A stretch of 60,622 nucleotides of DNA, filler included, from Circinaria calcarea (taxonomy: Eukaryota): the NCBI GenBank assembly GCA_051942165.1. It is 3 parts of 3 records of this genome, joined end to end, with 100 filler letters (N's around TTAATTAATTAA, not from the genome) between each part and the next. Parts side by side here need not be neighbours in the genome. Positions count along the whole stretch, not along the records: positions 40,577 to 60,622 come from JAVECS010000185.1; 2 more parts are not named here. One strand, given 5' to 3'. A model generated the notes under the pieces. The model saw only the letters and a list, made by a program, of their open reading frames with translations. It made no database searches and was not told the origin of the DNA. Positions 20,319 to 60,622 of this stretch are shown piece after piece (within the stretch, counting starts at the first letter, position 1; the number at the start of each line of letters is the position of its first letter). The translations under genes and the position numbers were made by a program.

Positions 20319-20412
20319 TAGCTCGACTGACTCTCCACCAGCCCCCAGACTTTTTCAGTTATCGCTGGTTTCATTATTCCTTCAGCCCAGCTCTTTCACC
20401 ATCCAGCCCATC

Positions 20413-26400: not shown

Positions 26401-29400
26401 GACAACACAACACAGCCGAATGGAAAGTCTAAGAAAGATAACAAGGGTGGTATCTTCGGTCTATTCACCAGATCTACTGATGATTTGTCTAAGAAGAATC
26501 GCTCTAAAGATACTCCAAAAGAATCTACTCTCGAGAGTTTCGAAGAAACGAAGAAAAAGGGCAAAAGGTCAAAAGATCATAGATCAGCCAAGGATGATGA
26601 TGTTGTTCGCAGTCGCGCTTCTAAGCCTGTGGCTGACTTGAATCATTTTAATAATGATGACTTCGAAGAGCCGAAGAAAAAAAGCAAGAAGTCGAAGGAT
26701 CGAAAATCAAGATATGACGAGGATGATGTGCGAAGCCGCGCCTCTGAGCCCGCATCCACTCTTACTGCGTTTGATGATGACGATAAGAACGAAGACAGAA
26801 AGTCCCGTAAGTCATGGAACAAGGAAGACAAGCGACGAAGTCGTCAGGATGATGCTATACAAGAGAATTCAGGTAGGATCACCCAAGACCTACCGGCCAA
26901 GGTATATATGCCAGCGTCTCCCGGTCATCCCCTTCCAGAATTATCACAAGAGTCACTAACGAACCCCGAGGATCCAATTCTTATCGACTCTGAAGACCAA
27001 AACAAACCACACGTGAATAAAGATGATCGTGAAAAAGACAAATCAATAGCGATCAGTGACGAAAATCAGCCCCTGTCTTTTTTAGGCGAGCGCCAGGAAA
27101 TGGAAAGGCCACCAGATGAAGCCGGTACACTACTACCCCATAAATCAGTCCAGACCTACCCACATTTTCGTGATTTGCCAAAGCTGGAACCTATGAAAGA
27201 CATCTTACCGCCCCTTCCCGAAAGCCGGCCTACATCTCCTATGGAAGTGGGTAAGCTAGATGATCTTCCTTCGCTACCACTTAGTCGGCCTACATCGCCT
27301 GCGACAACGCCATCTGGTCATCGGCGACACTTGTCCATGTTGCAGTTATCCGAGGTCAGCCATCCCGGATCTTCACCTTCTCCTACTGCGGTTCCCTTGT
27401 TCTTCCGTAAACCTCCGTCAGCTGGCTTTAGTCGCTCTTCACCCTCAACCCCTGCGGCGTCTTCACAGAGCGCTGCATCTTTCACACCTCGCCAGCGGCA
27501 ACCCCGACCTTCGTCAACAGAGTTCAAGACATCAACGGAATTTCGGCCCCTCTGGTTAGTTGAACGACATAGCGCTAGACAGATACCTCCATTGAACGAG
27601 GTATATCCATCACTTCCTTCTAGCCATTCTACGTCACGTGCGTCGTCAGTCCACGATCCTGAAGACCTGGATCCGTTCGACGATGTCAAGCTCGGGTCTG
27701 ACGAATTGGATATATTAGCAGAGCCAGATCTTATTGTTGATACTCACCGAAATACTCGCTCAGACTTCCTCGACTCGCAGCAAGCGACCCCAACTGCAGC
27801 TTCGTTTCAATTTAAGGAAATAGCGTACGATGACTTACAGGATGGACAAGCACCTATTTATGAGAAAGAACTTGGGGACATCCTGGCTGGAGATGAGCTC
27901 GAGGGTCAACAAATTCATGGAGTACCGCAGAGGATTACACATTCCGTGGATGATCTTTTCCCAGATTTGCGAGCTAAGTCACCGTCAAGGTACGATTTGG
28001 AAGGTCATGGGGTATTTTCAACGCTTCCCTTGAGTCGGCCTACATCATCACACGATTCATACTCTGTAGACGAACCACCCTCTGCCACAAGGGAGATAGC
28101 AACCGATGCATTAACCAGTGCTGCCAGCCTGGAATTATCCCAATCAACCAGCTACCCCCAAAATCAGCCTGTATCAGACAATGATCGCAATCCTGCACCT
28201 GAGTCTAATTATGAATCCTCTACCAAAAAACCGGAAGAGTCTTCAAGGAGCATACAGGTAGGAGAAGAAGGAAAGACATTTGTTTCTACGAATGACAAGA
28301 GGAAGAAAGACAAAAAACGGCGAAAAGATGGTAAGGTGCTTCAAGAACAGCACGAGCCACGGACTACTAGTTCTTCGGTAACTGTTGTTACCAATCCCGA
28401 TGTGAAGCCTTTGAGCCTCGACGACAGACAGATAATTGAAGAAAAAGATGCCCAAGATGCTGTTGACTCTTGGTTCGCTCCAAGCTCGTTGAAGAAGCGT
28501 AGTAAAGAGAAAACAGACAAAAGGAAAGATAGGGGCATCAACATCCCAGAAAATTCAAGTGAACGCTTAGTTGCGACCGATAGTACTGACGAATTGATCA
28601 ACCCAGTTTCGACTAGCAAAGATCCTGTCCTTACTAGTAATGCGGCTCCTCCAGCAGATTTGGTGGAAGAGGCTAAGTCTACAAAGTCTGGCTATGAGGA
28701 TACTCAACTGGCTCAGGAGGAGGCTACCAGAGCTGAAAGTCTTACTAAGGATGTGCCTGTAGTGGAGGCTGTAGTAGTGATGGCTGCCTCTGCTGTTTCC
28801 GCTGCAGCTTCACTAGTGGGACCCTTGAGACCCTCGGCGTCGAAGACACAGGCTAAGGACGACGACCGACAAGGTATTGCGCCGATTTCTAAAAAAGGGC
28901 AAATCGAGGGGGCAAAACCAGCGGATCAGATTTCTGGCGAGGCAGCGCTGCCAGAGTCCCTTTCTGAAGATAGCACAGGACAAAAAGTTTTGTCTGATGA
29001 TTCACCAGACCCGTCATCTCTGGCGCCGCAAATCGAGGAGGACAGCTGGCAAGATATCTCATCAAAGTCACAAAAGGTGAATGATAAGCATCCAGCACTT
29101 GAACCTCAAGCTTCTCCAAAAGATAATCCACAGCTTAACATCGCTTTCGGACCGCCTCAAGACGCTGCTACCTCATCAATTGATCAAGATCAGTCTATCG
29201 TTAACGACAGGTCCAAAAGGAGTAAAAAGGGAAAGAAAAAATCAGGACCCTCCGAAACCGGGATTGAGCGCGGCTTAGATATGCTTCCAAGTAGTGCATC
29301 ATCTTCAAGTAACGTCGTTGAGACCAAAATGGGTGAACAGCAGCTAAGGGAACCTGTCTTGTTGAAAAGATCGAAAAAAGACAAGAAAGGGAGAGAATCT

Positions 29401-32400
29401 GCGCCTCTCAATTATCTTGAGGAACCAGTAATTTCGAGTGCTCAAGTGCATAGCCAAGGAGAAAAATCCAAGCCGGTCATTTCCGACTTTACTTCAAATA
29501 CTACCAGTGAAGTCGTTGTGGACGCAGGTCATCAAAACGCCGAGGCTAGGCAAGCTATTTCGAGTACTGACAGTTCAGAAGCTGCTTCATCAACAAATAC
29601 GCAAGCAGTCTCCCCTGAGGAAATTCCTTTGCCGCCTGGCGATGATCCCGAACTGCCTGATACACTTCCAAGAAGTGCGACTATCGATCAGGATACAGTA
29701 AAGGTTGAAGCGCCTGGCGTGGTTTTACCTTCGATCCCCCCAGCTACGCTAAAAGAAAATCAACCTTCAACACATGGTGTCCATAGCCTAACAAACACAC
29801 CTCCAGAGACATCGGGCATCGGACAAGGTGTTGCCATTCTTGAGAATTCGCTCACGATGATACCACCGATTGATGACCAGAGTCCTAACAAGGTTCCACT
29901 GCCCGTTGACGATGACCTGGATTTACTTCCCACGCTACCAGCGAGTCCCAATGAGGTTGCATTACCTGATGGCGATGATCTGGATTTACTTCCCACGCTA
30001 CCGGCGAGTCCCAACGAGGTTGTACTGCCTGATGACGATAATAGGGATATATCTCCTCAGCTATCAGCGGGTCCTAATGAGGTTGCACTACCTGATGATG
30101 GTGAAGTTGGTTTGATTCCCACATTACCAGCGAGTCCTGTGATTAAGGGGAAAGTAACGGATGTGAACGACATTGTAGTTCCGGTATCTCCGAGTTCGCC
30201 AATCACCCCGGAGAAACTTGCATTACCAGATGGTGACGACAAAGATCTTTTTGACACCGTTCCCTTACTTTCAAGGTCGGAGTTCCAAGACACTATAAAG
30301 GTAGAGTATCGTTCTACCGATAATATTCCAAATCCATCTGGGAAACCAGATCTTGTCACCTTTAGCGAGAGAGACTCGTTCACATCCTCCCTAAAGCAAG
30401 ACGAGGAGCATGAGATTACCCAAGCTCCACAAAGACAGCTTCGAGAGGAGAAAGTATTAATGGAGGCAATACCAACTCCGCATACAGCTCAAGTCAGTGA
30501 AACACCATTCTTCGAAGCCGCTTCAAGCTTGCCGTTAGAAAGCCGTCTCCGAGATAATTCCAATGACTACTTCACAATGGCGGAGAGTAAAAGTAGAAAG
30601 AAAAGGAGGAACGGCCGGCAGAGCCAGCCTACGACTCCTTACGCAGGGTCTGAAATTGGGAGGGAAGATTTTGAGACGCCTATGGAGCTTCCTCCTATAG
30701 ACAATAGTAGATTTTTACAAACTGAGACCCCAAATGATACGCCTTCAGACAACCATACACCACAACCCGTCGGGGATGAGTGGGCGCTACCAATAAAGAA
30801 AGGCAAGAAAGGCAAGAACTTGAAGGCTGTCGATACGTCTTCTAGTTCACCGGTTTCCAAAAATCACCAAGAAGCACTCTTATTCGAGCAGGAAGATCCT
30901 ATACTGTTGACTAGCGGCTCTATGGAACCATTAGACGACCATTCAACACGAGAGGAGCTCGATTATAAGCGCGGTGATAACCATGAGAATCTTTTACCGG
31001 GCAACAAAATGCTACAAGCCAGCTCGCTCCCTAGTCCTGGCCCTGGAAGCTTAATAGCCTCGGACAGCCAAATTGATCAACCTGGGCTCCCAGTCACTTC
31101 AAACCTGACGAGAGCACCGAAGGACAAACTTGAGGAACCCGCCGCGGATAATAATTGGGGCTTTCCGACAAAGAGAAAGGGCAAGAAAGTCAAAAAGTCC
31201 AAAGAAGTAGAAGCTGGGTCCGTCCCAAACACGTTGAATGATCAGCAGAATCTGGTAGAACCGAATCAAACGTCGGATACCAGTAGTATCACTAATGAGA
31301 CACGGAACATAATAGATCAGGAGAGTACACCAGTCCTAGACGTTACTAGCTTTGATGAAACAATTCCATCTCAAGGAGGTACTGCTAATCTGTCGTCTCG
31401 GAAAAAGGGTAGAAAATTGAAGAAAGGTGATCAAGCAAGCATGATTGAGGCCAAAGAACCCGATACTCACGAAGCTGTGCAGACGGTCTCTATTGAGTCT
31501 TGTTCGGTAAGCTCTAATAGCCCTCTGGCCGAAAACAGTGAAGAGTCCAGTATGTCAGCGTCGAAGAAGAATAAAAAGAGCCAACGAAAGGCATTGTCAA
31601 GAACTGTTGGTGAGACTGCGCATTTTTCTAATTTCCCAGATCAGGTACAAAATATCGAGGAAACACCAGTATCTGAAGACTTACGTGCGGCATCCACATC
31701 TCGAGATTTCAAGCCAGTAAGTGATGAGGTTGCCAGCCAAGAACCCAGCGGGGCTATCCGAATCATTCCCGGAACTGAGGATTCTATGACGACTAAAGCC
31801 CATTCACAACGCTTATACCTGTATGACAAGGCTCCAAGTTCAATTGAAGCCGCTCTCCTCGAGCACCCAGCCGCACCTGTTGAGCAAAGAGCGCTTAATT
31901 TACTGCCCACCGCAGAATCTGCGGCAGACAAGATCTTACAAGAAGCAAGGATGACGATATTACCAACAGAAGATATGCAGGATTTTCCAGATGATCATAG
32001 AACAAATCATGAAGCAGTTACGGATTCTATTGTCCTTGGAACGGGCGAGAGCAAAGATGCCCGTTTGAACCAAGAGAACGAGCCCTTACTTCAGGCTCGA
32101 ACTTCCGGAAACGCAGATGACGTGATACTTCGCGAAGCAATTAGCTATCCCTTACCATCAGACAATCTAGAGCATCTTCGAGAGGATCTTTCTCTACAGG
32201 ATAAAACTTCTAGCTCGCACGACCGTGAGATGGATGGTGATAATATAATCATGGCGAGTAAGGACCTCGAAGAGCAATCTAGTCTAAGGGGTGCTAGATC
32301 CCAAGAAGATGCTATCTTGGATGAAGCGAGCAAAGCCAAATTACCTCCAGATGATGTGGATTCGTATTCGATGGATGAATCCGCGCAGCGTACGACAGTC

Positions 32401-35400
32401 ATTGAATCTTCTGCTACTGATTCTAGTAGCAATACAGAGATCGGGGCAAGTCAAAAGACGAGGTTCTCACCTGTACAGTTGGACCTTGAGTCCCAAGAAG
32501 AAGCCATATTCGAGGAAGCTAAGAACGCGGTCTTACCCTTTGATATTGCAGATTCATATACGGGCGATGAAGGTTCACAATACATAGCTACTGCTCCTTC
32601 GTCAAACATTGAACTCTATGGTGCAGGAATGCAACAACTTCAAAGTGTGGAGACACAACCAGCCGTTTCGCCCCCAAAATCTCGCGAAAATATTTCCGTG
32701 GAGGAATCTGGTGACTCTGTATTGCCAGCAGACAAGATTGAGGAACCCCTTATAGATCCGACCAACCAACTCAACAAAAAGATAGACCGCGCGGATAATG
32801 AGACGGTTGAAGATTTTCGATTAAGTCCGCAAGCCATCCCACTTCTCATGAATCAGGAAGAGTCTCAGGAAGATAGGATGTTGCACGATGCTGTTGCTCT
32901 GGCTCTACCCGCAAATACTGCAGATGAATCTTATGGGCACCACGCAGAGGTCTCCACAACAGTCTCATCTGATCGTAAACAGGATACTTCCACACTTCGG
33001 AAAGAGCCTGCTTTAAGCGAAATCCAGGTGACGCAATCTGAAGAAGACATTCTGTTGAATGAAGCGGCGGCCACTGTCCTCCCGCCAGATGCAGAAGTCG
33101 AAAGCCTCGAAAACTTGGAGGACAAGCCAGTAGCACTCGATGAGCTCAGAACACTTGATGAGTCTGAACAGGTCCAACCAAATGACTTTCCGAGCAGGAT
33201 TACTAAGAAGTCGAAGAAGACCAGAAAGTCAAAAGCATCTGCTTGGGATGACGACTCTGCCAGCGCTGAATTTGAAGAACAAAGCCTGCCCAAGCTTGAT
33301 GCGACTTTGAGCGAAACGGCCAGGACATCACAGGTAACGCAACCCCAAGCAGAGTCAAGTAGCTCCTTATCCAAAGAAATCAAGGCATCCACTGAAGCTG
33401 CTCACGAGCCCCTTAGAAGCAAAAGAGACAAAAAGAAGAGCAAGAAAGCGCAGGCTCTCAATTGGGCACCCGATGTTGAAATTGCTATCCCTAATGAATC
33501 TCTTACAGCAAGCGCCAGTGCACCTGCTCCCAGTTTGCCGACAGATGGACTCAACATGGTAGATAATGGGAGCCAAAATGTACATGATTCTGGGACCCTC
33601 GAAAAATTAGTTGCTCTTTCAGGGGAGACAGTTCCCGATATGAACGCTGCTGTTATCAATGATAAGGGACGTTATCCTGTAGCGAAAGTTAAAGAGCGTA
33701 AAAGAAAAGGTAAAGGAGCTCAAGCTCTAAATTGGGATGGCCATGGGGAAGCCACTGTATCCGAAAAATCTTCTGCAACCACTGAACTGTCACTACCATT
33801 AACTCTAGAGAGTAATCTAGATATTCCTCCTGTCCTAGCACAAACAACTGAAGGTCTTGGCAACATTGCTTCTGTGAAGAAAGGCAAAAAAGACAAGAAG
33901 AGTAAGAAATCTCAAGCTCTTAGCTGGGAAGATGACGTCAAAGCCCTAGAACCTCAAGTATCCTCAACGAAAGAGCTTGATCTGTCGAATCCAGAAGCAT
34001 CGCCAGAGACGTCTGCTCTGCCTGGAGATGGAAACGCTGCTGAAATCACATTTTCTAGCGATAGTTACAATCTTCTTGGCACAGAGGCTGCCACGGCTAC
34101 AATTACCGCTATTCAAGAGAAGGGACCTACAGAAGTAGTGAACTCCACCGAGCCAAATATTGATGTCAAAGGAGACACGACGGCGATGCTAGGAGATCCA
34201 ATGATATCGGCTAAGCAGTACCCCGTATTCCCCGAGATCGAAATACCGGATTCCCAGTTTAGCGTGAACACAGACGGGGATTCAGCTGATGTGGAATCAT
34301 TTAGCCTGAAGAGAAGCAAAAAAGATAAGAAGTCCAAGAGAGTACGAACAGTTGATCCGGGTGAAGAGCCGAATGTTGCAGTTAACGCAGATCCAACCAT
34401 ACCAGTCTCGAAGTATCCTGAATTTCCTGAAATTGAACTTTCGGATTCTGAGAACATTACGAGGACAGTAATTGAACCTACTAGGTTTGCAACGTTTGAT
34501 TCGAAGAAGCCAGAGAAGAACAAGAAAGGGAAGAAGGTAGACATGTTTAGAGCGGATAATGATTCTAAAACCGTCAGAGCAGATCCCGCCGTCAATGAGG
34601 GATCTAACGTGACAGTGAAAGATTTTGATGAAGTACCCGCCAACAAAAATGCCAACATCGAGGGATCTGAAAAGCTTCAAGCAGGTTCCGATGACATCAA
34701 CATTTCTGTTTCAAAGAAAGGCAAGAAGGACAAGAAGAAAGCGAAAAAAACCCAACTGGCTGACTGGGATGAAGAACCTGAGAGTGGCTTACCTGAAAGT
34801 TTCCTACACGAAGGGGTGATTGGAAATGACACAGAAGTTGGCGCACAAGGACCTTTGAGTCTACCAGAAAGTAGCATAATCGACAATACTACCTCCCAAA
34901 ATGTAGCTACTAAATCTGATGACGAGGCTCAACTCAGCTTTGAAATTAGTGGGGAGGATAAAACGAAGGCGAAGAAAGCATTACTACCCTTGGAAACCCA
35001 GCGGCCTCAGCTAAATCTAAGCGGTCAAGAGATCGAAGCCTCTAGGACAATCACTCCGGACGTTCTACAAAGTACAGAGATGGGGCAACAAATGTTGGAA
35101 AACTTACAATCGCATGAAGTCCTGGAAAAGCAAAAAGCCCTGTTAGAGCCAGAATCTCGACCAGAACAAGAAATCTTACGAAAACCAAAGGTCCTGTTAG
35201 AGTCAGAAGTCATACGAGAGCAAGAAATCCTACCAGAGTTAGATGTCCTACAAGAGCAAGAACCAGAAGTCCAAGAAAATCTTGAAGGCCGACAAGAGCC
35301 AGCAGATCCCAACCTTGACCGTGCCATAGAGCCGTCAGTTGTTCCTTCCCAGTCCGCAACTATCATTCCTAAACAATCCGAGTCCCAACCCGTGGATACA

Positions 35401-38400
35401 AGTCTTGCTGAGGATCCGGAAAATTTGTCCATGAATGATCCCCCTTGGATACCTGATCTGCAAGATCGAGAGGCAGCCAACGTCAAAGCAGCACCGGACC
35501 TACGAGACGATAGACAATCTGAACCCCCACGGAATGACATGCTTCTCCAGGAAGCTAAAGCAGATACTCCTTTGGGGTTTCAAAAGGGGACGCTATTGCC
35601 ATTGCTTCCTGTAACGAATCAAGTAGAGACACTACCAGAGACTAATCCTTCTCTTAGTATCCTTGATACCACTCGCGATACATTGGAGAAACAGCCGGAT
35701 GAAGTAGCAAGTAAAGAGAGTCGGATAGCCATACAAGGTCCCCGAGACGTCGCGCCGGTCATGGAAGACGCCTCCTTCAGCAGTGAAAGTTTCATTTTCC
35801 CAACACACGACTCACCAGCCTTAGATTCTACAACTAACACAAAAACAGAGCATGTTGCCATCAGCGATAAGGCGGAGGGTCATGTTAGCATCGTTCCAGA
35901 AGCGATTGTAAGGGATAAATTTATAGGTTTCACAAGCAAGAAGAAGAGCAAGAAGGATAGGAAGAAGGGGCATCAGGAAATACCGCCAGATGCGAGTAGC
36001 GCAATAGACTCAGGTCTCTCTACTCAAATAGAGCCAGTCCCACCTGTCGAGGGGGTCAAGTCTATACCTGCTGCTGCTTCGGCTCTAGGTATACTCGCAG
36101 TTGAATCCATTGTTAGCAAAGATGAACACGGGCATTCTAACCCGGAAGAAGTACCTTTAGTACGAAACAAATTGGGGGCCCTGCCTGACTACGATGAGGA
36201 CTTTTTTACTGTTCGTCAGGAGTCGATTCTGAGAGCAGAAGAACGGATTCCTACAGAAGAAGTAAAGTATGGAGCTGAGGAAAATGACAAGCTACCCAGC
36301 CCTGATGGTTCCAGCGCGTTCAATATGGGGACGAGGAAGAAGGGCAAAAATTCAAAGAGGCAAAAGCCGCTACTGTGGGAGGATGATATCATTGCGCCTC
36401 CTACAGTCCTGAAGTCTGGTCAAACTGAACTTAGAGGGAGCCCGAGTCCATTGCCAGCCTCTGAAGCTCAACCTGCTCCGGAGCCATCAGGTCAGGAGCA
36501 TGACTCTGAAGATGTTTGTGTTCCGCCCTTGGACGAGCCTCTGCAGTCGCAGGAGTCTATTGCCATAAAGCAAGATCAAGTTCTCAAAAGTAATGACCTT
36601 AAGCGTGGAAGGATCCAAGACAACGACGAAGAGTATCAGATCACTAGCGGGCTGCAATCATCAGATACAGAGCGATTCCAAGAGCCGGATGTTCCACCAG
36701 ACGTCGAGTCTGAACAACAGGGTCATAGTCACCAAAGTGATACATCACATGGAGAATCACAAATTCCTGCAGTGAGCTCTCCGGGTTATCTTTCCAACCT
36801 TGCTGAGGCAAGAGGCATTGTCCAAAAAGCCGAGGAAGCGCCTGAGGCTTCCTGGGCACTTCCCGTCACAAGAAGCAAGAAGTCGAAGAAAAAGCAGAGT
36901 GAACCATTTGCGGCAATGGGAATTACGGAGACCAACTTCAGCAGATCGCCCGGTCCAGTCGAAAATGTCGAAGATCAAATTACCTCATTCCCCATGGATC
37001 CTCCAGCAGAAACATCAACAGAAGCAGCTTATCTACCAAAGGAACAGACGTTAGACAATCAACTCTCAGGATTAGCGCAACATAAGGATCAGGAAGTTAG
37101 CACTGTCGCGGAGCCTGAAGACGTCTGGGACTTGCTAGTTACGAAGAAAAGCAAGAAACCCAAAAGATCAAAGAATCAGCGACCAGACCGTGATTTCATT
37201 ACTGAGTCTGCGGATTTACCTCTACATGAAGAGATCATCAAAACAGAACAACCGTCGTTGGATCTACCAAAAGCAGATGTATCAGATTTGAGAAACAACC
37301 CTGAAGTGTACATGGTGCAGGCCCCTCCAATCGTTCAGTCATCTGTAGACTTAAACAAAAAGGAAATCGATGAAAATCTTCCATCAAGCACTGCCGTCAT
37401 GGAATCTGAGCAGCGTTCATCCAACGGCTTTTCGGGAAGAGCGAGGGCAACATCTACTGTGGGTGCTGGAATAGCCTTATTCGAAGGCTTGCAGAGGGCA
37501 GAATCCGCTCCAAAAGGGAAGAAGACCAAGAAAGAAAGGAAGGGAAGCCGACCAACCGATAGGGATGAGACGAATTTCGATCCATCATCAACAGTCAAGG
37601 GGGAAGGAAGTAAAGAACTTGCTACTCAAGAACCTGTCCGGCTAGAGCAAGATCCTGATAACGGCCCTAAGGATATCAGCATGCCCTTGAACTCCTCCCT
37701 CGAGCAACCAAGCTCGCTAGAAACCTCAGCATTTCAACCTGCAGAGCCTGACAAGTCTGCGTACAGAGACAGTGGTGTCCATGTCATAGATTCGCCTGTG
37801 CTACTTGAGGGATGGCCCGTCCGTAATAGCTTGCGTGACAGTGGATATCAAGGCACCGAGGAAAGTCCCAGAATCGACGTAGATTTCCAGGGACAGAAAC
37901 AAGAGACAGACGAACAAAAGGCACGGCCATCAAGTGATGGTTTTTCAAGACAATTACCCTACGATATCATTCCATCTCAAATAGCAGAAGCCTATACCGC
38001 CCCTGGCACAGACAGAAGTAGTATGCCTGATAGCTCGGAAAACCCCTTTAACATCTCTATCGAGGTCGATCCCACTTACGACGTATCGATTTCTAGAGCT
38101 AAGACAGACCGCAATCAGACAAGGAAAGTGTCAATCGTCCAAGCTGATGAACACGAGAAAGAAGACCACGAAGGAGGGCAACGTTCGTCGATTCAACCTG
38201 AGCTTCCCGTAGGTTCTCCACGCCAACCATCCCCGGTAGACTCAACGACCAAAGATCGATCGTCTATTCTATTCCAATCATCACCATCGACAAGAGAAGA
38301 AGGTGTTGACTATGCAGCAACATACCAGCCTCTATCTCCGCGACAAGCCTACGACCAAGGTGAGCCAGTAGCCATCTCAATACCTCTAGCCGAATCATCG

Positions 38401-40476
38401 CAATCACTCCAGGATAACTCACCCAGGAGCATCGAAGGCGGTCTGCGGGGAGTCAAACCAATCTCGCTCTTTGGCGGCCCTCTTGGCGTAAATAGCGACT
38501 TACCGACAAGTGCATCTTCCCCAAGGACTCCGCTAGATTCAGAAGATTCCCGTCGAGGGAAACTAAATACCATTATCGAGTACAGCCCAGAGGAGTCACC
38601 TTTGCATAAGAAGTCTCGGGATATATCAGACGTTGGACTGCGCGACTATGGCCCGAAAGCTGCTCGTCATTCGGCAACGCCGCAAAGTCTTTTGCATCAC
38701 CGAGTTCGTTCGCCGCTGGCCAGCGACGAGAGAGACAAAGGTCCAATCTCGACGGACGATATCTTATCGCGGCTCTCATGGCCAGCTGTTGACGAAGAGA
38801 ACCATTCCGTTGATCTAGACCGGAGTCTAAGCCGCAACGACCACTCGGAACGTCGGACATCGAGTCGACAGAGTAACGTGTCGACTCTAGCGATTGACCC
38901 TCACAAACACCCCGAGCCGGAGAGGCGTTCGTTCAGCGGCGCGAGTATCCGCTCTGGGGAGAGCATCCATGCCATCATCAGAACACCCGACCAACTTCGA
39001 TCGGCGAGTGGTCTGAGTAACCGGTCGTCAGGAACACCACCGTTGCGACGTGTCGACCGCAGCGTCAGTGGAGATTTGAGGGCCGCCAATAAACGGAGTG
39101 AGGCTAAAACAGGCGCTAAGCGAGCCGAGGCCGACAACCTGGGAGCTGAACCTTATGCGGCGATTCCCTCCTCCTCAACTTACGACCCCGTCACCGACAA
39201 AGGCAAGAAAGCCATCAGTGCGATGGCCGATGTCTATGTAAGCCCTTCTCTCCCTGTAGACATGACACGCGACCCAAACTAATCCGATGGAAATGTAGGA
39301 GGGATGGGGTGACGTTCATGGATCCCCGCGATCGCCAACGCGCCCGCCAAGCATGCGACGCCGCCAGAGCATGCAAATCCTGGACCTGGAGACGAGACTC
39401 GACCAGCTCGTATCGGAAAATAGACTGCTGCAAGATGCCAGAGCCAGGGCGGAAAGAAACGTCGATGATGCGGCTCATGATCACAGTCGAGAGAAAAACG
39501 CCCTGACCGAGGCCCTCCAGACACGTGATCTCTACTTGAAGCAAAAGGACTCGGAGCTAAGCGAACTGAGGGACATCTTAGACCGGCTTCATCATGAGGT
39601 GTCGCAACTGACTGAAGTCAACGAGGGATTGACGGGAGCGAGACAGGAGTTTGCTGCCGAACACCAGCAGAGATATGACCAACTTGCAGCCGAGCATACT
39701 GAAACGCATCGACAATTGCAAGACTCCACAAGGGAGTTGGAGGAATTGAAACAGAAACACACGCACCTTTCTACCGGAGTAGAAGGCATCGTTCGCCATG
39801 AAGTCACCGTGGCAATTGAGAGTAAGAACTTAGAGATACGGCAGCTGCGAGACGAGTTGCTCGGCGCAAAAGAACAAGTACGGCTGTTGCAGCAGCAGAT
39901 CCTAGCATCCAAGCCTAGTGATGACCTCCTCACAAGTAGAGACGAGGACTATTTTGACAGTCAATGCCAGCAGCTATGCCAGCATGTGCAACAGTGGGTG
40001 CTGCGCTTCTCCAAGTTCTCGGATATGAGAGCGTGCCGTCGTACCAGCGAAGTTTCTGACGAAAAAGTCATCGATCGCTTTGACAATGCCATTCTCGATG
40101 GATCGGATGTCGACATCTACCTTGCTGACCGAGTCAAAAGGCGTGATGTGTTCATGTCCGTTGTCATGACTATGGTTTGGGAATATGTTTTTACACGATA
40201 CCTCTTTGGCATGGACCGCGAACAACGACAGAAGCTCAAGTCGCTCGAGAAAACCCTGAGCGAAGTCGGTCCAATGAGAGCTGTGAACAAGTGGCGAGCC
40301 ACAACCCTAGTGATGCTATCGAGAAGAGATGCTTTCCGAGCGCAACGAGCGCAAGACACTGAGGCTGTCGTCCAAGAAATCTTTCGCACTCTAGCCGTGC
40401 TCTTACCCCCGCCTTCGCACCTAGTGAATCAGATACAGGAGTCTTTACGCAATGTCATGCGAGCGGCAGTAGACTT
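20413..40476 (+). CDS. lah: Leashin-like Woronin body tether ('involucrin repeat protein'), 3'-partial, >6600 aa
   Basis: 18.8-kb exon 20413-39237, intron 39238-39298 (GTAAGC..CTAAT..TAG), then in-frame EGWGDVHGSPRSPTRPPSMRRRQSMQILDLETRLDQL, a coiled coil, and EDYFDSQCQQLCQHVQQWVLRFSKFSD to the gap. N-terminal blocks GLAAEYYGD and FEEYTEYIGVCKYCF, and an acidic disordered middle with Lys clusters, match the known architecture of Pezizomycotina leashin. Confidence 0.82.
24100..24500 (+). repeat. Coding 24-bp tandem repeat (ERRDQEAR-type charged repeat) in leashin
   Basis: GAACGTAGGGACCAAGAAGCCAGG and variants repeated many times; encodes alternating E/R/D/K, consistent with a single alpha-helix. 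Confidence 0.85.
29883..30140 (+). repeat. Coding 60-bp tandem repeat (PNEVALPDGDDLDLLPTLPAS) x4 in leashin
   Basis: Four consecutive ~20-aa units visible at both DNA and protein level. Confidence 0.85.
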
Positions 40477-40576
40477 NNNNNNNNNNNNNNNNNNNNNNNN
40501 NNNNNNNNNNNNNNNNNNNNTTAATTAATTAANNNNNNNNNNNNNNNNNNNNNNNNNNNNNNNNNNNNNNNNNNNN
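40477..40576. other. Artificial contig-joining spacer
   Basis: N44-TTAATTAATTAA-N44, same as 20219-20318. Confidence 0.95.
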
Positions 40577-45208: not shown

Positions 45209-47358
45209 CTAGGTGATTCTTTGCTTCAGCATGCTCATGAGTTTCTTATTTTGCCGTATGAGTTGATCTATCCTAGCATTCGACGAGGCGGCTTGCTTCT
45301 TCATTTCCTGCTTCTGCCTCTCAATCTCCTGCTGCTGCCCATCGTGTTCTCTTTGAAGCTCTGATTCGGTTGCGCTGGCATTCGAGGGGGTTTGCTGTTT
45401 CAGCAAATGCATGAACTGCTCGTCTCGTTGAGCCATCTGTTCTCTCAGCCGATCTATTTCCTGCTGCAGCATGGATTCGTTTCCAGAGCTGGCATTTAAT
45501 GGAGTTAGTTGTTTCAGCGATTCCATGAGTTGCTGATCTCGTTGAGCGAGTTGCTGATCTCGTTGGGCGAGCTGTTCCCTTAACATGGCAGTCGCTGTGA
45601 GTCTCGGTTTCTTCATGCGTTCCGTGTCCTGAGATGCAGGAGCGCTTGTCGCCATTTCCTGTGAATCAGGTAGCTCTGATTCGTTTTCGGCGCTGGCAAC
45701 TGATGTGAACGAATCGCCAAGTGAGACCCCAAAATCTAGATCTGGCGGTATATCGTCGATAGCCGAGCAGATTCTTTTGAGGTGAGTTGGCATCCATACA
45801 TCGTAGACGTTTTTAGTGAATTTATACGCTGTCCATTTCTCTTTCCCTTCTAAGGCGGTAAAATAAAATTCATGGATGGGATGACGATAGTAGGTGGTCT
45901 TATCTCCATCAATCACAGGGTAATGACCATAGATTCTTACAGCTTGATCGTCGTGCGAGATCGAGAAAGCGAGGATTTCTAGGTGGATTTCTTTCTCGCG
46001 TTTCACATGCCTGTAGAGTTGGACGACAGCTCTTACAGCAATAGTCATACTATGAGCATTCTGTCGATCTGCGACATCAAGTGCTGCAGCACCACACTTC
46101 ACCTCGCATGTCAGGAACGGAAAGTACATCCGCCACGTGCCCATGAAGTAGGAAGTATGAAGATCTTCGATCTCTCCAACCAAAGGCTTCAACTTTTCGA
46201 GTTGTTCATCCGTGAATGCAGATCGCGCGAATCCCACAGAATGGTCGGGCTGTGGACGGCTATAAACGACGGGTATAGCGCTGTTCCAGCCTTCATTAAC
46301 ACTCTCGGTCAAACAATCGAGACCTTTGGCACCATAGATTTGTAGGACCAGCGGAGACGGACATATCAAGGGAGAAATGTGCCGTACAACTATAGCCTCA
46401 TTTCTACTCCGTACACTGTCGCAAGTCTCATCAAACAAATCATCGCGAAATAATGTTTCTTGAGGAACTGTTTGTTCCGTAATAAGTAAGGATCGACAAA
46501 GAGTCTTGCTTATATCAGTGATTTTTAAAGGGGTTCGGCCCATATAGCTGCCTTTGGTCGCAAGTACAGTCTCATAGGCTGCAGTCATATATTTAGAACT
46601 TTTGGCTTCCCGCGGCTGTTGATCGCTAGGTGTTGCAAGGCTAGATTCCGAGTCTTTACGCCGAAGAGAAGATGACGACTTCTTTCTCGCAAGTATGTCG
46701 GCCATATTGATCTCTTGTTTGATAAGAAAGTCCTTGAGACAATTGTATCGCTCCAAATCTTCCCTGGTCTGGCTGTCTTGTTCAGAGTATTCCTTGGGCC
46801 AGCTCCCTTCTCGAATCCAATGTTTGATTGGTTGAGTCTTTTTGTTGATATCACCTTTCGCTTCCTGTTTTGATGTATCCTCGACAGCAGGATTTGCAAG
46901 TAAGGTTCGTGGTCGTTTTTGACAAGGTCCGTTTCCAGTTCGAGGGAGCGGATCTTCAGCTTCCTGAGATCTCTTTCGCTTTCGATCAGAGTTTGGAGGG
47001 TTCTCTAAAGCTGAAGGATCTTGCAAGATCTTTGATTCGAGTCAGCCTTCGCAACACAGTATAGTGGATGACCGCTAGGACATACTTCTTCACCGAAGGA
47101 GTTGGTCGTTGAAGGAGAGGGAAATAGAGGCTTTCGCTCCGGAGTCTTGCGCTGTATTTCTTGTAAACGTGTGCTCTTGCGAACAGGCTTGAGTAACTGT
47201 TTGCGCTGAATACCACGAGGCTGCTTCCCTATAGATGGTCAGCAAAAGGTAGGGTGGGCGTTTAACGTGAATGTGTTACCTTTATTGGCAAGTGATTTCA
47301 GCACCGAAGATTGCCGCCCATTTCTTTGGGCGTTTGACTTGGTCTGATCTCGAGGCAT
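45209..47358 (-). CDS. PD-(D/E)xK nuclease-like protein (DUF7924-type) with C-terminal coiled-coil repeats, 3 exons
   Basis: Spliced start MPRDQTKSNAQRNG..KQPRGIQ..PVRKSTRLQ joins ORF 45209-47026 in frame. Core motifs NEGWNS, RPQPDHSVGF, FPFLTCEVKCG, ADRQNAHS and FSISHD..VRIYGHY. Confidence 0.75.
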
Positions 47359-53257: not shown

Positions 53258-55827
53258 TTATAATTCTTCACTTTCTTCCCTTTCTTCTCTTAGCCGTCCA
53301 GTTTCAAATCGCTCAATAAGACTTTGCACTTTTGCTGCCGGCGGAACCTTGAGTACGGCTTTGAGACGTTTTGTCTTAGCGTCTTCGATAATTGAAGCGA
53401 GAGGAGTTAACTTGAGTCTTTTTCCAGGACCTTGAGCTAAGTATCGTGACTGATATACTTCAGGTTGTGACTCTTGTGATTTACGTGAGCGCTTTAACGC
53501 AATGAGCATAGAGGATGCGTTCCGTGAATCAGCGTGTCGCACATGAAAAGCGCCGTTTATAAATGGTGACAATACTGTAAAAGTAAATTTCTGCCGATTT
53601 CCACCTCGGAGTACCCGCGAAGCTTCTGCAAGGGACACAACTTGATCTTGAGATGGCGTTTGACCGAGGTCTGGTGCTTCGACATCGTCAGGTGCGTCTT
53701 CGTGTGCCATGCGCTTCTGGAGAGGCAATACTGGAGAGTCGGGCAGTGGTGGAAACGTTTGACTGAAGTCTGAAAGTCCAATATGGTCGTGGACATCTTC
53801 ATATATCGTAACGTCCTGAGGAGGCGATGTTGGGGGGTCTGGTATTTCAACATCATTAGGAGCGTCTTCGCGTGTCGTATTTTCTTGAGGCGATTTTGGG
53901 GAGTCCGGTAATGGCGGCAACTGTGGTGATATTGAAGTGAAGTCTGGCGATTCAACATTATCGGGAACGTCTTCGTCCATAAGATCGGACCCAGGATTGG
54001 AACTCGGCCCTTCTTCCATCGTGCCGAAGAAGCTATAAAAGAAATCTCGCTTCACATTGAACGAGGTCAGGTAACGTTTTGGAGTAATGCTGGATGAATT
54101 TGGATATATGTGATTGAGGAAAAGATACTGCCGATCAGCCAGGAAAGATTTCTCGAACGGAATGCCACATCGACTAGAGATATCCGACCCGCAATCATCG
54201 TGATCAGAGGTTAATTCCGGGAACTTCATGGCTGATGTATTTTGTCTAATGCCTTGAAGAACCGCACAAATGGCCTGAACCTTATGATGCAGGTCTACAG
54301 GTTCAATCCGATAAAAATCCGGAGGCCGAGCCTCGCGCAGAAAATCCTCGGCCATTTCGGCATCAACATTCTGGAGATTTGGATAAGGTTGACATATTCG
54401 CTGGAAGCCGGTCTCGGACGCAAGAGAAGCGAGTTCATACCACCATCGTGGTTGTATTTTTGGGCGTTTAGGCATTGGCTTACGAGCATCCTTTCGAGGG
54501 GCCTGGCCGATCATCCAAGGAAATTGACGAAGAGCCAGGCACCAGAGCTGACGATATGCCTTCCACTGAGCCAGAGACCCAGATGATTGGATACTATTTT
54601 CAAATGAAAATTCCTGTTGTTGCAACTTCAGTCCAGGTTGCCCATTATGGAGAGATTCGAAGGCTTGAGCGATAGAATATTTACAGTTGAAGGGTAGTAT
54701 CACCTTCAAGATTCTGGCACCTACTTCGAGAACCTTTGAGCCTTCCAGGAAGGTGTGAATGGAGGGAATAATGTATTCGACCGAACATACACGCTCGAGG
54801 ATGGCTGAACGCTGTTCCCAAGATTTAATCGCAGGTAGGATGTCGCCCTTAAGCATTTGTGTCTCAACATATGTGCGATCTTCCAGAGACTTGCTTGGGC
54901 AGCGGCCTTGTAACAGATGAACAGTATAGGCGTCTGTTTGAAGATGGCAACCTTCGTTCCCTCCAATTATATAACTCCACGTTTGCTTGACTCGACGTAG
55001 GTATCGCGTCATTTCCTAATACAATTGTTAAAACAGAAGAAATATTATGCAAAGAGATAATATCCACCTCGGGGCAATGTATAGTAAGGAGCCGATGGAA
55101 CGTGCCGAGCTGCATCGCCGGCCAAAGCCCTGTGAACGGAATCAAGGCATCTAAACTATCTCTGAACTCGCGCATACTAGAGTCCTCCTCTGCCCTCTTC
55201 TCCAACCGTATAAGGTCGTCCCTCTTGCTTTTAGAAAGCCGTGCAAGCCATTTCCGTCTTCGAGGTTTGTTGCCTTGTAAGGTTGCAATGCGCATATGGC
55301 GAAAGATATCTCCGTCGTAAAATCTCTGCGAGTTCGAGCATTCCTCGCGAAATGAAGTTCTTCCTTGAAGATTGAGATCTAAGGCAGGTCAGGGACGGGT
55401 AAGAAGTTATTCAAGATGGGTTCTTACCATCAGCGTATAGATTAACAACCCACCACTTATCATTCGCAGCCAGGTATTTTTTCGCTGCTTCCAGTCGGTG
55501 TCTGCCATGCAGGTAGGTTAAAGGATGTTCTGGTGTAAAGAATTGAGGCTCCTGAAGAATAACGTCACTGATATTGCCGGCTCGAAAACCTTGCGGAAGA
55601 GCATTTCGAGAGATCAAAACAGGTACATAATGCTCCGGCTCCAACCGCACACAACCCTCCTCTTCAAAGACTTTTAATAACCTCGCGACGTTCTTGTCGT
55701 CGAACTGGCGTGGATTTTTGGGGATTGTCTCGTATTGCAATTTGTTAATAGGGACTTTAACTGATCCACAAAACGTTCGGCTTTTCTCTCGAAATACCTG
55801 TAAATCATCAGTTGATAGAGTCTCCAT
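53258..55827 (-). CDS. DUF3723 protein (Starship-associated), 3 exons
   Basis: Exons ~55827-55428, 55378-55068 and 55015-53258. Motifs NVARLLKVFEEEGCVRLEPEHYVPVLIS, LHGRHRLEAA, WWVVNLY, FYDGDIFRHMR, GLWPAMQLGTFHR, IIPSIHTFLE and YRQLWCLALRQFP are characteristic of fungal DUF3723 genes. Confidence 0.82.
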
Positions 55828-56014: not shown

Positions 56015-58635
56015 ATGGCTTCTTGCCGACATCTCGCATGGTTACATGTGACGAGCACGAACCATGGAAAGGAAGTTATACTTTTCAACCCAGGCCGCAT
56101 GACACAAGTTGTGGGAGAGCTGACTAATTCAGAGACTCAACAACCATCTGTCCTCCTATTTATTGGTCGAAAAGCCAAGAAGATAGCGCTAGGAAAGCTT
56201 TTCCTGGAAAACAACATCCCGAAAGGTCACCATGATGGCTTTGCTACTTTACGAGTTGATAGCGCAAGTCTGTATTCCGGCTGTCCTGTTTTGTTTGCCG
56301 AAAGTGACCCGTTTACTGCAATACCATCTACGGCGAACACATTCTCCTGCCACGAAACCGAGCCATTTCGTCTCAAGTGGGCTAAAGCTATACCGGTGGA
56401 TGAACTCTACAATACTGTACATGCTCGGCTTCTCATTCCATTCGCTGACGTGCTGTGCATTTTTGCTGATGATTTTGTTGACTTTGAGAGTGTCCTGGAT
56501 CGTTTGGAGAGTTGGGCGGCTGCTGGCAGCGCCTCAAATCTGTCCGAGCATATGCGGCCAAGAGTTGTCATCGTCAAACGCGGCGAGGAAGCCAGTCCGA
56601 GTCCCACATATGATTTTCTCGAGATGCAGGATCTTCGATTCAGCCTAAATCGAAAAGTCTTAAAGAAATTTTACTCTTCCATTACTGTGTTGCATCTCGC
56701 AGACGAGCAGATATCCCCGCTGGCACGTTTTCGGCGGCTGAAAGAGTTACTCTGGAGGAACATGGATGAAATGCGACAAGTTCGGCAGAGAAATAGATGC
56801 CTCTATTCTGCCGTGCACCTTGCTGAATTCTTCCGTATGGCCGTAATGCATACGGCGACCTCTCTCCTTCGCCCTTTCAACTTCATTCTTGCAAGCCGAC
56901 AGAACAACGAAGTCCGCTCCGATCATACAGACCATTTGACTACATTCCTACGACTCGGGACCGAGTTCGGATTATCTTGGGATGCCATGACAGGCTTTAT
57001 TGCTTCCAGTATTTTGCTGGATGCGTACCCTCCAAGGATGCATAGTAAGACCTCTTGATTCGCATTCGATAGATCATAAGCTAATCGAATGACTAGGGTT
57101 CAACCCGAAGACTGTATATGAAACCATTTATTATCGCTCCTGCCTCAAGTCACTCGTCGACTTACACAAAGATCGATCCACTACCGATGAGCGGGCCGAG
57201 GAGCGGGCTAAGGAACAGGAAAAATGTGTAAAGAAGCACCTGATCAACACTTTCTTGGATATGATTCGGTTGGGCAAGACCGCCGCACAGCTGCATCGGG
57301 AGAAGGCGGGCAACCTTAACATACTGTGGCCGCAACTTAAAAGCAACAATACTTGCCTTTGGTGTTTACGGCGAAAGCCAGAAAATACGCTTTCCTGCGG
57401 ACACGCCATCTGTGATGTTTGCGTCCGCATTTACGGAGAGGAGATGCCTATCACAGAATCTCAATATCATATTGGCACTTGTCTTTTATGTCACTCTGGG
57501 AGCTGCACCGTTAGACTCAAACCGTTTTCTGCCGGTGAACGGATTCTCAGTATTGATGGTGGAGGTCCGCGTGGTGTTATACCGTTGGAAATTCTGAATA
57601 TTATCCAGGGCATCATGGGACCGGATGTTCGACTTCAAGACATGTTTGATGTTGCATTCGGCACCAGTGTTGGTAAATTTTGCCTCTAGTTCTTAAGAGG
57701 TGTCAAACTAATCATATGGTAGGAGGCCTTATTGTTTGCATGCTGTTCTTACGCGATGTGCCAGTCGCTCAATGTACTCGACTTTTTGATACGCTGGCCC
57801 GAAAACTCTTTCAACGACCCCAAGAGTCAAGAAACATCTTCAAACGTCTTCGCCTTTTCTTTAAAGGTTGGTATTTGGATGGTCATTATGATATAAGTGC
57901 CCTCGAAGATTATCTGAAGGAAAACTTGGGAAGTAGCGATCGAATGTTTGGTTATCAACAGGGTATTCTTGCTACCAAGGTGGAGTGGTCGCCGCTACAA
58001 TTGGCAAGGCCGATCCGATTATTTTCACCAACTACAATGGATCGGGTACAAGAAATGAAGATTGCGGTAAGTGCATACGCTATATATTTGGATGCAAGTA
58101 ACTGAAGGGTAAATTAGGGTATATGCATATTCGCCCGAAGAACATCGAAAATGAGCCATGTTTATGGGAAGCGTAAGTTCTTTATTTTCAGAGGAATATG
58201 TATAACTGACTGTATAGGGGTCGAGGTACTTCAGCTGCGCCTATGTGAGTGTAAGCCGGTAAATGTGCGGCTTGCCATAACTGACTCGAGATAGGTTATA
58301 CCAATCAACACTGATCAAGGCCTCTGGACCGGTTCAAGATGGTGGAATGAGCGGGCACAACAATCCCGTTAACATTGCATTGTGGGAAAGTCAACAGATC
58401 GATCCATCTGTACCCAAACCTGACATTATTGTATCTCTCGGCACAGGCACCGAAAGAATATCGGCATCCTCCAAAACCACTGAGTTTCGCCATGTGGTTC
58501 TTGACGGATATGTTCCTCGACTCTGGCGATCTTATATGTCTTCTTTTGACGGCCAAAAAATCTGGGACGAACTCATGAACCATGTGGATAAGAAAAATCA
58601 AGAAGACTATATACGATTAAATGTCTTCCTGCTTA
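56015..58635 (+). pseudogene. Patatin-like phospholipase (Starship PLP type) with RING-like Zn motif; frameshifted and 3'-truncated
   Basis: CLWC..SCGHAICDVC..CLLC, ILSIDGGGPRG, FGTSVG (GxSxG), TSAAP and QDGG..NNP. A 1-nt deletion near 57980 shifts TKV|GVVAATI..FTNYNG out of frame; family-like sequence stops after YIRLNVFL at ~58633. Confidence 0.78.
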
Positions 58636-58797
58636 AGAACCGAATCACATGTTTACGTGAGTGTTGCGGTCAATGCTCAACACCTCTCCCACTATATAAA
58701 AGCTTTTTCCATAGCGTAGCGTAGTTAGTGATCTACACCACACATAATAGCAATACATGCATACCACGAGATATGCTGCTTAACAACTTCGGCCTAT

Positions 58798-59886
58798 CGG
58801 GACGCGAAGAACTCCATCATCATTACATGGCAAATATCGTTCGATTATATCTATAAGATCAGACCGTCAGCTGCTGATTTGCTGTCGCTCATGAGCTTTT
58901 TCGATCGTCAAGGGATTCCAGAGGCTTTACTTCGAGATCGAGCCGAGCAGGGAAATAGCGAGCAAAATCAGGAAGAACACGATGGCGATGATGAACAGGA
59001 TCACGATAAGGATGATATATCAGAATGTAGCGATGAGTTTGAAGACGATATAGTGGCACTACGAAACTTCTCGTTCATCTCTATCAATGCAGATGGGAGC
59101 ACCTTTGAAATGCACAGCCTAGTGCAGCTAGCCACTCGAAAGTGGCTTGAGGTACATAGCCAGCTAGAACATTGGAAGCAGCAGTTTATTAGAAATCTTT
59201 GTGCAGAGTTTCCAACCGGGGAGTATGAAAATTGGATAAGATGTCAAGCACTGTTTCCACACGCAAAATCAGCAGCAGCGCAGCGGCCGGAAACACAAGA
59301 CTCATTACGAGACTGGGCTTCAATACTATACAAGGCAGCATGGTACGCGTGGAAGGTAGGGAATGCAGTAGAGGCGGAGAAGATGTCGATTCAGGCGATG
59401 AAAGTGAGAAAGAGGATCCTCGGTCGAGAGCATGAAGATACGCTGGATAGTATGGCAATGGTAGGTCTGGCGTATAAGCTAAAAGCCTTATGGGGAGCAG
59501 CTAAAGAGCTGGAGGTGCAAGTGATGGAGACTCGCAAGAACAAACTCGGAGCGGACCATCCTTCCACGCTGACCAGCATGGCCAACCTGGCGTCGACGCT
59601 TTGGAATCAAGGCCGATGGGATGCAGCTGAAGAGCTGGGCGTGCAAGTGATGGAGACGAGCAAGAACAAACTCGGAGCGGACCATCCAGACACGCTGACC
59701 AGCATAAACAATCTTGCATTTATGTGGAAGGCCGCTGGCAAAGGAACTGAATCTATAAAACTTATGGAGGAATGTGTACAATTACGGAAACGCGTCTTAG
59801 GAGTCAATCATCCATATACTTTATTATCCTGCACCACTTTAGCGAATTGGAAAGCCGAGCAAGAGGACGTTGGACTATCGGTTTAA
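58798..59886 (+). pseudogene. 5'-truncated NB-ARC-TPR (fungal NLR) fragment
   Basis: RDAKNSIIITWQISFDYI..AADLLSLMSFFDRQGIP, FEMHSLVQLATRKWL, then TPRs (LGADHPSTLTSMANLASTL). Two 126-bp near-identical repeats start at ~59497 and ~59623. No P-loop or start codon upstream. Confidence 0.8.
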
Positions 59887-60622
59887 AGGGCCGTGTGGCT
59901 GAGATGGATCGCTTAGTCAAATGTGCTGAATATAGTTGTAATTGAATATATTTGCCAAGCCTATAGCAAGTATAGGCTTGCAGAGCTCAAGAGAGGCTAC
60001 TCTGATGTACGAGGCACGATGACTCAGCAACAGGCACGTAACCTCGATCAACTACGATTTTGAACAAAACGATCATAACGTCCCTCCACACGTGCCGGAA
60101 AACCCGCCGTGCCGGAAAATCCGGCCGATGAAGAGGCTCGTTAAATTAAGCTATATGCTATGTAATATGGCTATTTCGGCATGCTTAGAGATACGTTTAC
60201 ATTGTCTTGTTTTTGCCCAGTTTGCTTCAGCTTTTTATTTTTTATAACATATGTCCTTGGCCTTGATTCCCCTATTATAAAATTGTCGGAGCTCATAACA
60301 CATGGCCAGAGGTCTTTCTAAATGTTAAGATTTAATCACGACAACAGGAAGCTTTCACCAACGGTATGCTTGCTATTGCATCCAAATTTATATCAAAATT
60401 ATTATATCGATCGGTACTTCTAGACCAAAGCTATTACCAATCTGGCTAGTGCAGAAACGCTCTACAAAGCCTCCCAAAATAACGGCTTCCATTACATGTA
60501 CACCCCTTTAACCTACACGTACACCCCAAAAATCATAGTTGTACACCCCCCGGATTAGGTAATAATCGTCGTCATGTTATATAGTGGCGCGTAGTATTAT
60601 TATAGATATTTGCAATGTAATA

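Follow-up and report, generated by a model that had tools for sequence, protein, structure and literature searches.

Does the N-terminus of a DUF3723 protein belong with the ParB and sulfiredoxin (Srx) proteins, and what would such a domain do there? The question is raised by a gene lying in 60,622 nt of DNA from Circinaria calcarea (GCA_051942165.1), referred to below as the window, which consists of three parts joined with 100 filler letters; positions 40,577-60,622, where the gene lies, come from JAVECS010000185.1. DUF3723 genes are among the few that recur across the Starship giant transposons, and their function is called unknown in the accessible text of two reports (PMC9156397; 10.1101/2025.02.28.640899). 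An earlier note on this DNA had lined up short motifs of the first exon with the bacterial ParB consensus and had proposed a ParB/Srx CTPase domain. We consider it very probable, judging from predicted structure, that the DUF3723 N-terminus has the ParB/Srx fold, and we favour, with moderate confidence, a working model in which this domain would act as a nucleotide-gated dimeric switch for a large fungus-specific helical body.

Exon 1 of the gene occupies 55428-55827 on the minus strand, exactly the span given in the earlier note. It begins with an ATG at 55827-55825 and stays open up to a GTAAGA donor (GT at 55427-55426), covering residues 1-133 and the first base of codon 134. Its translation (P0001, 132 amino acids) contains all the peptides that had been quoted from it, namely VPINKLQ, PKNPRQFDDKNVARLLKVFEEEG, YVPVLI, LTYLHGRHRLEAAK and WWVVNL. 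The AlphaFold2 model of this translation, built with 142 family sequences, has a mean predicted local distance difference test score (pLDDT) of 93.1 and a predicted template modelling score (pTM) of 0.84. The elements follow one another as helix 6-18, strands 19-26 and 30-32, helix 44-57, strands 68-71 and 103-105, helix 109-118 and strand 125-131, the last of which carries WWVVNLY (residues 125-131; 55435-55455, minus strand).

The carrying evidence is the company that this model keeps. In a Foldseek search of the PDB, all 26 matches listed to rank 45 are ParB, Noc, KorB, PadC, Srx, SbnI, pNOB8 ParB or Atu1540, with probabilities of 0.84-1.00, and the next entries are ubiquitin-like noise with a probability of 0.03. 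Atu1540 and Osa are proteins that we take to be members of the ParB-CTPase fold. Against the viral library BFVD the best Foldseek E-value was 6.3e-4 and the named rows were nearly all ParB-like, while the comparison of the exon 1 model with 48,161 representative chains by VIA-align left the next best chain at 3.6. SerK, SbnI and Srx are named as carriers of the same fold in the accessible text of a 2025 survey (Kaljevic et al. 2025, PMC12704722). The suggestion of a ParB/Srx-like N-terminus is thus borne out by the AlphaFold2 model and by the Foldseek and VIA-align fold matches, at the level of predicted structure.

The motifs singled out in the earlier note fall on the expected elements of the predicted fold. 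PRQFD (residues 39-43; 55699-55713, minus strand), its PR-x-FD motif, lies in the loop ahead of helix 44-57, and LHGRHRLEAA (residues 106-115; 55483-55512, minus strand), a G-x-H-R-x-x-A-A version of the GxxR type, lies between strand 103-105 and helix 109-118, with G108 immediately preceding the helix in the model. According to section 9 of the survey, the GxxR phosphate motif of the superfamily constitutes Box II, while Box I comprises a single helix with a single loop (PMC12704722). Helix 44-57 (DKNVARLLKVFEEE) and the conserved loop that follows it, GCVRLEP (residues 58-64; together 55636-55698, minus strand), appear, judged from the order of elements, to stand at the expected Box I position. 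Judged from the model, the domain is therefore a member of the ParB/Srx ("ParB-CTPase") superfamily, as it shows both a superposable fold and a GxxR motif at the strand-helix junction.

Conservation was followed in a family alignment. A HMMER search with the exon 1 translation against 1.84 billion cluster representatives found 847 proteins at E ≤ 1e-3, 310 of them at E ≤ 1e-10, and the alignment has 142 rows: the exon 1 translation and 141 of the best 150 homologues, nine fragments covering fewer than about 100 query residues having been dropped. Pfam DUF3723 is matched by 141 of the 142 rows, and the named members belong to Lecanoromycetes, Eurotiomycetes and Leotiomycetes. In the phosphate-motif region the window's residue is kept at L106 in 130 rows, H107 in 112, G108 in 134, H110 in 138, R111 in 131, A114 in 136 and A115 in 120, which gives the family motif L-H-G-[RQK]-H-R-x-x-A-A; LHGRHR occurs in 46 rows, LHGQHR in 23 and LHGKHR in 18, and the rare variants are LHGCHR (2/142) and IDGQHR (1/142). 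Both arginines of HGRHR were expected to be conserved, and the expectation held for R111 only, since position 109 is R in 67 rows, Q in 28 and K in 25; the best-kept residue is H110. In the PRQFD segment 100 rows keep R40 (of 125 non-gap) and likewise 100 keep D43 (of 141). The Box I-position helix keeps N46 (123/142), R49 (126/142) and L50 (133/142), the loop after it G58 (117/140), C59 (135/141) and R61 (128/142), and the last strand W125 (133/136) and W126 (138/138, non-gap rows).

The gene itself is intact and has three exons on the minus strand encoding 822 amino acids. Intron 1 (55379-55427, 49 nt, GTAAGA...TTAG) is followed by exon 2 (55068-55378, residues 134-237), which supplies the helix needed to complete the ParB-like domain. 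A diverged S148-N149 resembling Box III and the conserved segments DGDIFRxxR and KWLARLS are also encoded there. After intron 2 (55016-55067, 52 nt, GTGGAT...TTAG), exon 3 (53258-55015, residues 238-822 and the stop) encodes the DUF3723 helical body as well as a Pro/Asp-rich disordered linker and, at the C-terminus, a small alpha/beta domain. Annotated homologues of ascomycetes, lichen-forming ones among them, have splice junctions consistent with these. All three exons exceed the Pfam DUF3723 (PF12520) cut-off of 22 bits, and together they cover profile positions 1-508 consecutively: exon 1 matches positions 1-81 (E 9e-17, 61.4 bits), exon 2 positions 89-179 (E 2e-24, 86.5 bits) and exon 3 positions 180-508 (E 1e-72, 245.7 bits). 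The model begins at residue 59 of the protein, leaving residues 1-58 of the ParB-like domain outside it.

Exon 2 adds to the fold comparison. A full-length fold was taken from the homologue P0005 (773 amino acids), which is 43.6% identical to the spliced window protein and shares its numbering through residue 150; the AlphaFold2 model of P0005, built with a further alignment, has pLDDT 83.1 and pTM 0.74. With the next helix (137-145) included, nucleotide-bound ParBs are the best matches in VIA-align. M. xanthus ParB-CDP (7bnk_A) scores 9.2, with a root-mean-square deviation (rmsd) of 2.2 over 90 residues (model 21-148 on chain 37-127); C. crescentus ParB (7bm8_A) scores 8.8 (rmsd 2.5, 92 residues; 20-148 on 42-136) and B. 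subtilis ParB-CDP (6sdk_A) likewise 8.8 (rmsd 2.6, 92 residues; 16-148 on 20-112). PadC follows with 8.4 (rmsd 3.0, 94 residues; 16-148 on 289-383) and sulfiredoxin 6ky4 with 7.6 (rmsd 3.4, 87 residues; 20-142 on 16-103). The ParB alignments end at model residue 148 or 149, which corresponds to chain residues 112 (B. subtilis), 127 (M. xanthus) and 136 (C. crescentus), presumably the Box III asparagines of these proteins. In the window protein this position is occupied by S148-N149, N149 being kept in 39 of the 57 rows with a residue there, and Box III thus seems to be present but diverged. A diverged Box III is described as common among orphan ParBs (PMC12704722, section 9).

An N-domain dimer was modelled because a ParB-type switch requires engagement of the N-domains. 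Two copies of P0005 residues 1-235 were predicted together with two ATP and two Mg, without an alignment, and the homodimer reached a median score of 0.67 (runs of 0.74, 0.67 and 0.67) against 0.00 for the best of three controls. The runs had at least 63% of their contacts in common and a partner pLDDT of at least 74. In a calibration without ligands, the mark of the tool was reached by 21 of 30 solved one-chain pairs and by none of 23 solved single chains, the figures for eukaryotes being 17 of 29 and 0 of 30. The predicted interface is symmetric: in each copy residues 2-22, the N-terminal helix, lie against residues 57-65, the Box I loop, of the partner, and residue 148 also takes part. We read this pass, which is itself a model, as likeness to ParB, and it does not thereby establish dimerisation or a need for nucleotide.

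The loop E-G-C-x-R-L-x-P (residues 58-64; 55636-55656, minus strand) may be recorded here for its own sake, as its near-invariant C59 and R61 sit at the site of the base-contacting loop of ParB and inside the predicted dimer interface. We know of no nameable ParB/Srx motif that carries a cysteine equivalent to C59.

These in silico results, namely the fold, the placement of the motifs, the conservation and the predicted homodimer, can be arranged into a working model, from which we would infer nucleotide binding, switching and an action on Starship DNA. The domain encoded by exon 1 together with the beginning of exon 2 would have the ParB/sulfiredoxin fold, with a G-x-H-R phosphate motif and an EGCxRLxP helix-loop at the Box I position. 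It would bind a nucleoside triphosphate (NTP), for which ATP is no less likely than CTP. A pair of N-domains would then engage across their nucleotide pockets and form a nucleotide-gated dimeric switch, and the large fungus-specific helical body would perform the actual task, possibly by binding DNA or a partner. Judged from the predicted domain, NTP binding appears reasonably likely, and taken as a whole the model is in our view somewhat better than an even bet. The "CTPase" part of the earlier label is unwarranted because the nucleotide that is bound can be predicted neither from the sequence nor by AlphaFold3; binders of CTP, ATP and GTP are all known in this fold, as stated in the accessible text of the survey (PMC12704722).

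Several results weigh against this working model and are best considered together. Pfam returned for the exon 1 translation DUF3723 only, at E ≤ 10. ParB_N is absent from the 25 families listed, of 40, for the 142 members, so at most one member could match it, and then at E > 0.18; the family lies below the gathering cut-off of 26.3 bits for ParB_N (PF02195). No ParB-clan family was found at E ≤ 10 in 15 full-length homologues, nor in the best homologue (P0008) or in P0287. Sequence searches of the PDB, by phmmer with the single protein and with the family profile, gave 0 matches at E ≤ 10, and nothing relevant was found in NCBIfam (47 N-domains, and 16 full-length homologues with exons 2 and 3), PHROGs (47) or PADLOC (18). 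Profile comparison was no kinder. The 47-sequence family profile was aligned by hhalign to alignments built from genome loci (32 ParB, 29 GmrSD_N and 65 YbdM sequences), and the scores for ParB_N, GmrSD_N and YbdM were 19.7, 16.9 and 18.3 compared with 18.0, 11.2 and 20.3 for reversed-template controls, with P of 0.016-0.052. The fold matches themselves have modest E-values in the PDB (best 1.8e-3, never 1e-3), R109 of the phosphate motif is not conserved, and the ENxxR of Box III has diverged to SN. The homodimer pass may be model memory, as solved ParB N-domain dimers exist; in addition, the placement of ATP and Mg in it was unscored and the alignment was unused. Finally, to screen for transposition, a mini-Starship was constructed from just the ends, the captain and a marker, according to the accessible text of the report (10.1101/2025.02.28.640899). 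The use of such a construct argues for a place of DUF3723 outside the core transposition machinery, and the protein is probably not needed for transposition itself.

The order and spacing of motifs that had been lined up with the ParB consensus recur in the hhalign match to ParB_N (P=0.016, score 19.7, residues 21-61), which has the same register and places PRQFD on the QPR..fD of ParB, though not significantly. By sequence alone, the likeness to ParB is indistinguishable from chance with these tools; it becomes convincing only because the predicted fold supports it. The hhalign test has little power at this distance, since ParB_N and GmrSD_N themselves reach only P=1.4e-3 against each other. 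The ESM Atlas provided leads only, both at 0.87: DUF6551, and a cluster in which ParB_N makes up 11%.

The alternative that survives best goes further towards ParB and takes DUF3723 for a canonical sliding clamp on DNA that depends on CTP, or a partition factor, which would be loaded onto the DNA of an excised Starship and help in its maintenance, segregation or transfer. The long Foldseek alignments of the full P0005 model to ParB, Noc and KorB, spanning 191-256 columns (KorB 8qa9_A, TMt 0.50), argue for it, as do the looser VIA-align spans (KorB, 134 residues of model 21-194 at rmsd 4.1; Noc, 190 residues of 11-334 at rmsd 7.1), the N-domain homodimer with the reservation about memory made above, and the tie of the DUF3723 family to a mobile element, described in the accessible text of PMC9156397. 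Several points speak against it. The motif reads GxHR and not GERR, Box III has diverged, a C-terminal dimerisation domain of the ParB type was not observed, and the nucleotide cannot be predicted (PMC12704722, section 9). A helix-turn-helix (HTH) domain after the N-domain is a lead only, met as the best local match of a 270-residue profile to full ParB in hhalign at P=0.12, which is not significant. This match covers residues 206-245 at the exon 2-3 junction and sets DxLxPFxGLW...QLGTFHRLLxLxCPEE on the ...SR..VSNLLRLLxLP... of ParB; its place in the order of the protein would be in keeping with a layout like that of ParB. No ParA-type family was detected at E ≤ 1e-5 in the 24 window frames scanned with Pfam (23 of the 29 frames of at least 180 amino acids, a 6,335-residue frame being taken as two halves, and one of 147); a partner or a loading site was not sought systematically. 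We regard the clamp as unlikely. The same low probability applies to its fullest form, in which DUF3723 would be the eukaryotic counterpart of the ParB clamp, a nucleotide-gated dimer closing on Starship DNA and securing its inheritance, nuclear partition or cell-to-cell transfer. If true, this would be the first known instance of a ParB-type switch for handling DNA at work in a eukaryote.

The phosphate motif of sulfiredoxin is GCHR, and its H-R pair recurs in the G-x-H-R of DUF3723. Judged by its letters, the DUF3723 motif is of a type that resembles sulfiredoxin and YbdM rather than the GERR of ParB. An enzyme-type domain like that of sulfiredoxin, SerK or SbnI is accordingly conceivable, which would bind ATP and transfer phosphate to a protein or a small molecule without acting on DNA; these three proteins use the fold as an ATP-binding module (PMC12704722, accessible text). 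Nevertheless, residue 109, the position of the catalytic cysteine in sulfiredoxin, is R, Q or K in DUF3723 and LHGCHR is confined to 2 of 142 rows; about 690 further residues follow the domain, unlike the single-domain Srx; and canonical ParBs fit better once the next helix is included. An enzymatic role of this sort seems to us rather improbable.

The genomic surroundings bring in another alternative, an NTPase sensor like DndB or GmrSD (DUF262) that would form a conflict or immunity module with the neighbouring gene. That neighbour (56015-59886, plus strand) combines a patatin-like phospholipase (PLP) with tetratricopeptide repeats (TPR) of the NOD-like receptor (NLR) type and stands head to head with the DUF3723 gene, with about 187 bp between the two ATGs, an arrangement that suggests a shared promoter region. 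Its matches are patatin at E 0.0013 in the exon with GGGPRG, TPR_10 at E 5e-41, DUF7779 at E 2e-9 and also TPR_12. NLRs and PLPs govern fungal allorecognition, as the accessible text of PMC9156397 has it, and GmrSD_N is the sole ParB-clan family among the Pfam families listed for the members (3/142, best E 0.042, under the cut-off), while hhalign places LHGRHRLEAA on IDGQQRLTTL of GmrSD_N (P=0.052). Neither the Pfam nor the hhalign scores rise above noise, however; PADLOC gave no relevant match for 18 proteins, and DUF3723 yielded no nuclease domain and no other effector domain, so that such a sensor is in our opinion very unlikely. The least credible explanation, an artefact of modelling or a small alpha/beta arrangement of a common kind, devoid of nucleotide-binding function, would accord with the negative outcome of every sequence-level test and with the modest Foldseek E-values, yet the best-conserved residues sit on the functional motifs of the superfamily, and we give it hardly any weight. 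The ParB/Srx-fold switch with a helical body is hence the reading that we retain.

The patatin/NLR neighbour makes the context match the DUF3723-PLP-NLR association of Starships, which is described in the accessible text of two reports (PMC9156397; 10.1101/2025.11.25.690456). Among the 24 window frames scanned, no DUF3435 captain and no ferric reductase was found at E ≤ 1e-5. The DUF3723 gene lies 5 kb from the end of the window, and a Starship element, should this copy belong to one, could extend beyond it. The left 44 kb hold ordinary genes, including those for ATP synthase b, CBF/Mak21, PSMD12/CSN4 and an RSN1 channel.

Some further observations were made along the window. The patatin/NLR gene changes frame at several points, owing to either introns or breaks. 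A 610-amino-acid frame at 45212-47041 (minus strand), situated between the housekeeping genes and that of DUF3723, matches DUF7924 at E 1.5e-106. An unbroken frame of 6,335 codons runs from 20275 to 39282 (plus strand), with only a weak SBB_T7 match (E 0.0026) in Pfam at E ≤ 0.01; its start is rich in Ser, Thr and Pro, and internal tandem repeats of 24 and 63 nt are present. Runs of 44 N in two pairs (20219-20262 and 20275-20318; 40477-40520 and 40533-40576) bracket this 20-kb stretch. At 60001-60622 the G+C content falls to 40% compared with 45-50% elsewhere in the window.

A ParB/Srx nucleotide-binding domain would give a protein family of unknown function a testable biochemical role, with G108, H110, R111, C59 and R61 as candidate key residues, and a DUF3723 of this fold would widen the known eukaryotic range of the ParB-CTPase fold. 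In the literature, no paper joining DUF3723 with ParB was found in the library searched, and the papers naming both Starship and ParB were unrelated by title and abstract. The accessible text of the 2025 survey contains no word beginning with "fung" or "transposon" and no "DUF3723"; eukaryotes were searched there with PF02195 at the gathering cut-off (PMC12704722). Such a survey could not have detected DUF3723, because the family misses that cut-off, and the start of the Pfam DUF3723 model in mid-domain, at residue 59, helped the link to be overlooked. The novelty of the assignment is tempered by the automatic UniRef name of P0008, "ParB/Sulfiredoxin domain-containing protein", which indicates that some signature database already touches the domain. 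P0008 is a 216-amino-acid N-terminal fragment of a Stereocaulon homologue, 62% identical to exon 1, and the full-length members are named "Uncharacterized".

It remains to set DUF3723 beside the systems that it recalls. Homology of DUF3723 to SMC (TIGR02168) was stated by Gluck-Thaler et al. 2022 (PMC9156397, accessible text). It was not reproduced here, as 16 full-length homologues and the window exons 2 and 3 gave no such NCBIfam match at E ≤ 0.1; the SMC and the ParB readings nonetheless both point to the machinery of chromosome segregation. With DUF262/GmrSD_N and DndB (DGQQR/DGQHR) and with E. coli YbdM (DGFHR), DUF3723 shares the motif style x-G-x-H/Q-R, one member in 142 even having IDGQHR, whereas profile similarity to them is not significant in hhalign and Pfam and no associated nuclease domain was found. 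Sulfiredoxin (6ky4, 1xw3, 3cyi), the commonest eukaryotic representative of the ParB-CTPase fold according to the accessible text of PMC12704722, has in common with DUF3723 the H-R pair of the phosphate motif; DUF3723 differs in being a large multidomain protein with no catalytic cysteine at the motif position (C in 2/142) and in carrying a family-specific invariant cysteine, Cys59, in another loop. The orphan ParB-CTPase-fold fusions on mobile elements of bacteria, archaea and phages, as far as they are described in the accessible text of Kaljevic et al. 2025 (PMC12704722), offer a parallel in being lineage-specific fusions that have no ParA partner.

From ParB/Spo0J, Noc and KorB (7bnk, 7bm8, 6sdk, 7ol9, 8qa8), DUF3723 is set apart by its G-x-H-R motif (HG[RQK]HR) in place of GERR and by the divergence of Box III, by some 30 residues inserted between strands 2 and 3 (73-102, partly of low pLDDT), by a score below Pfam ParB_N detection, by a body lacking a demonstrable HTH or C-terminal dimerisation domain, by the want of a demonstrable ParA partner or parS, and by its occurrence in eukaryotes as a fusion to a helical body that is specific to fungi and about 430 residues long. 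What it shares with them is the GxxR-type motif at the same strand-helix junction, a helix and loop that appear to hold the Box I position, a predicted symmetric N-domain dimer across the pocket region, and an association with mobile elements.

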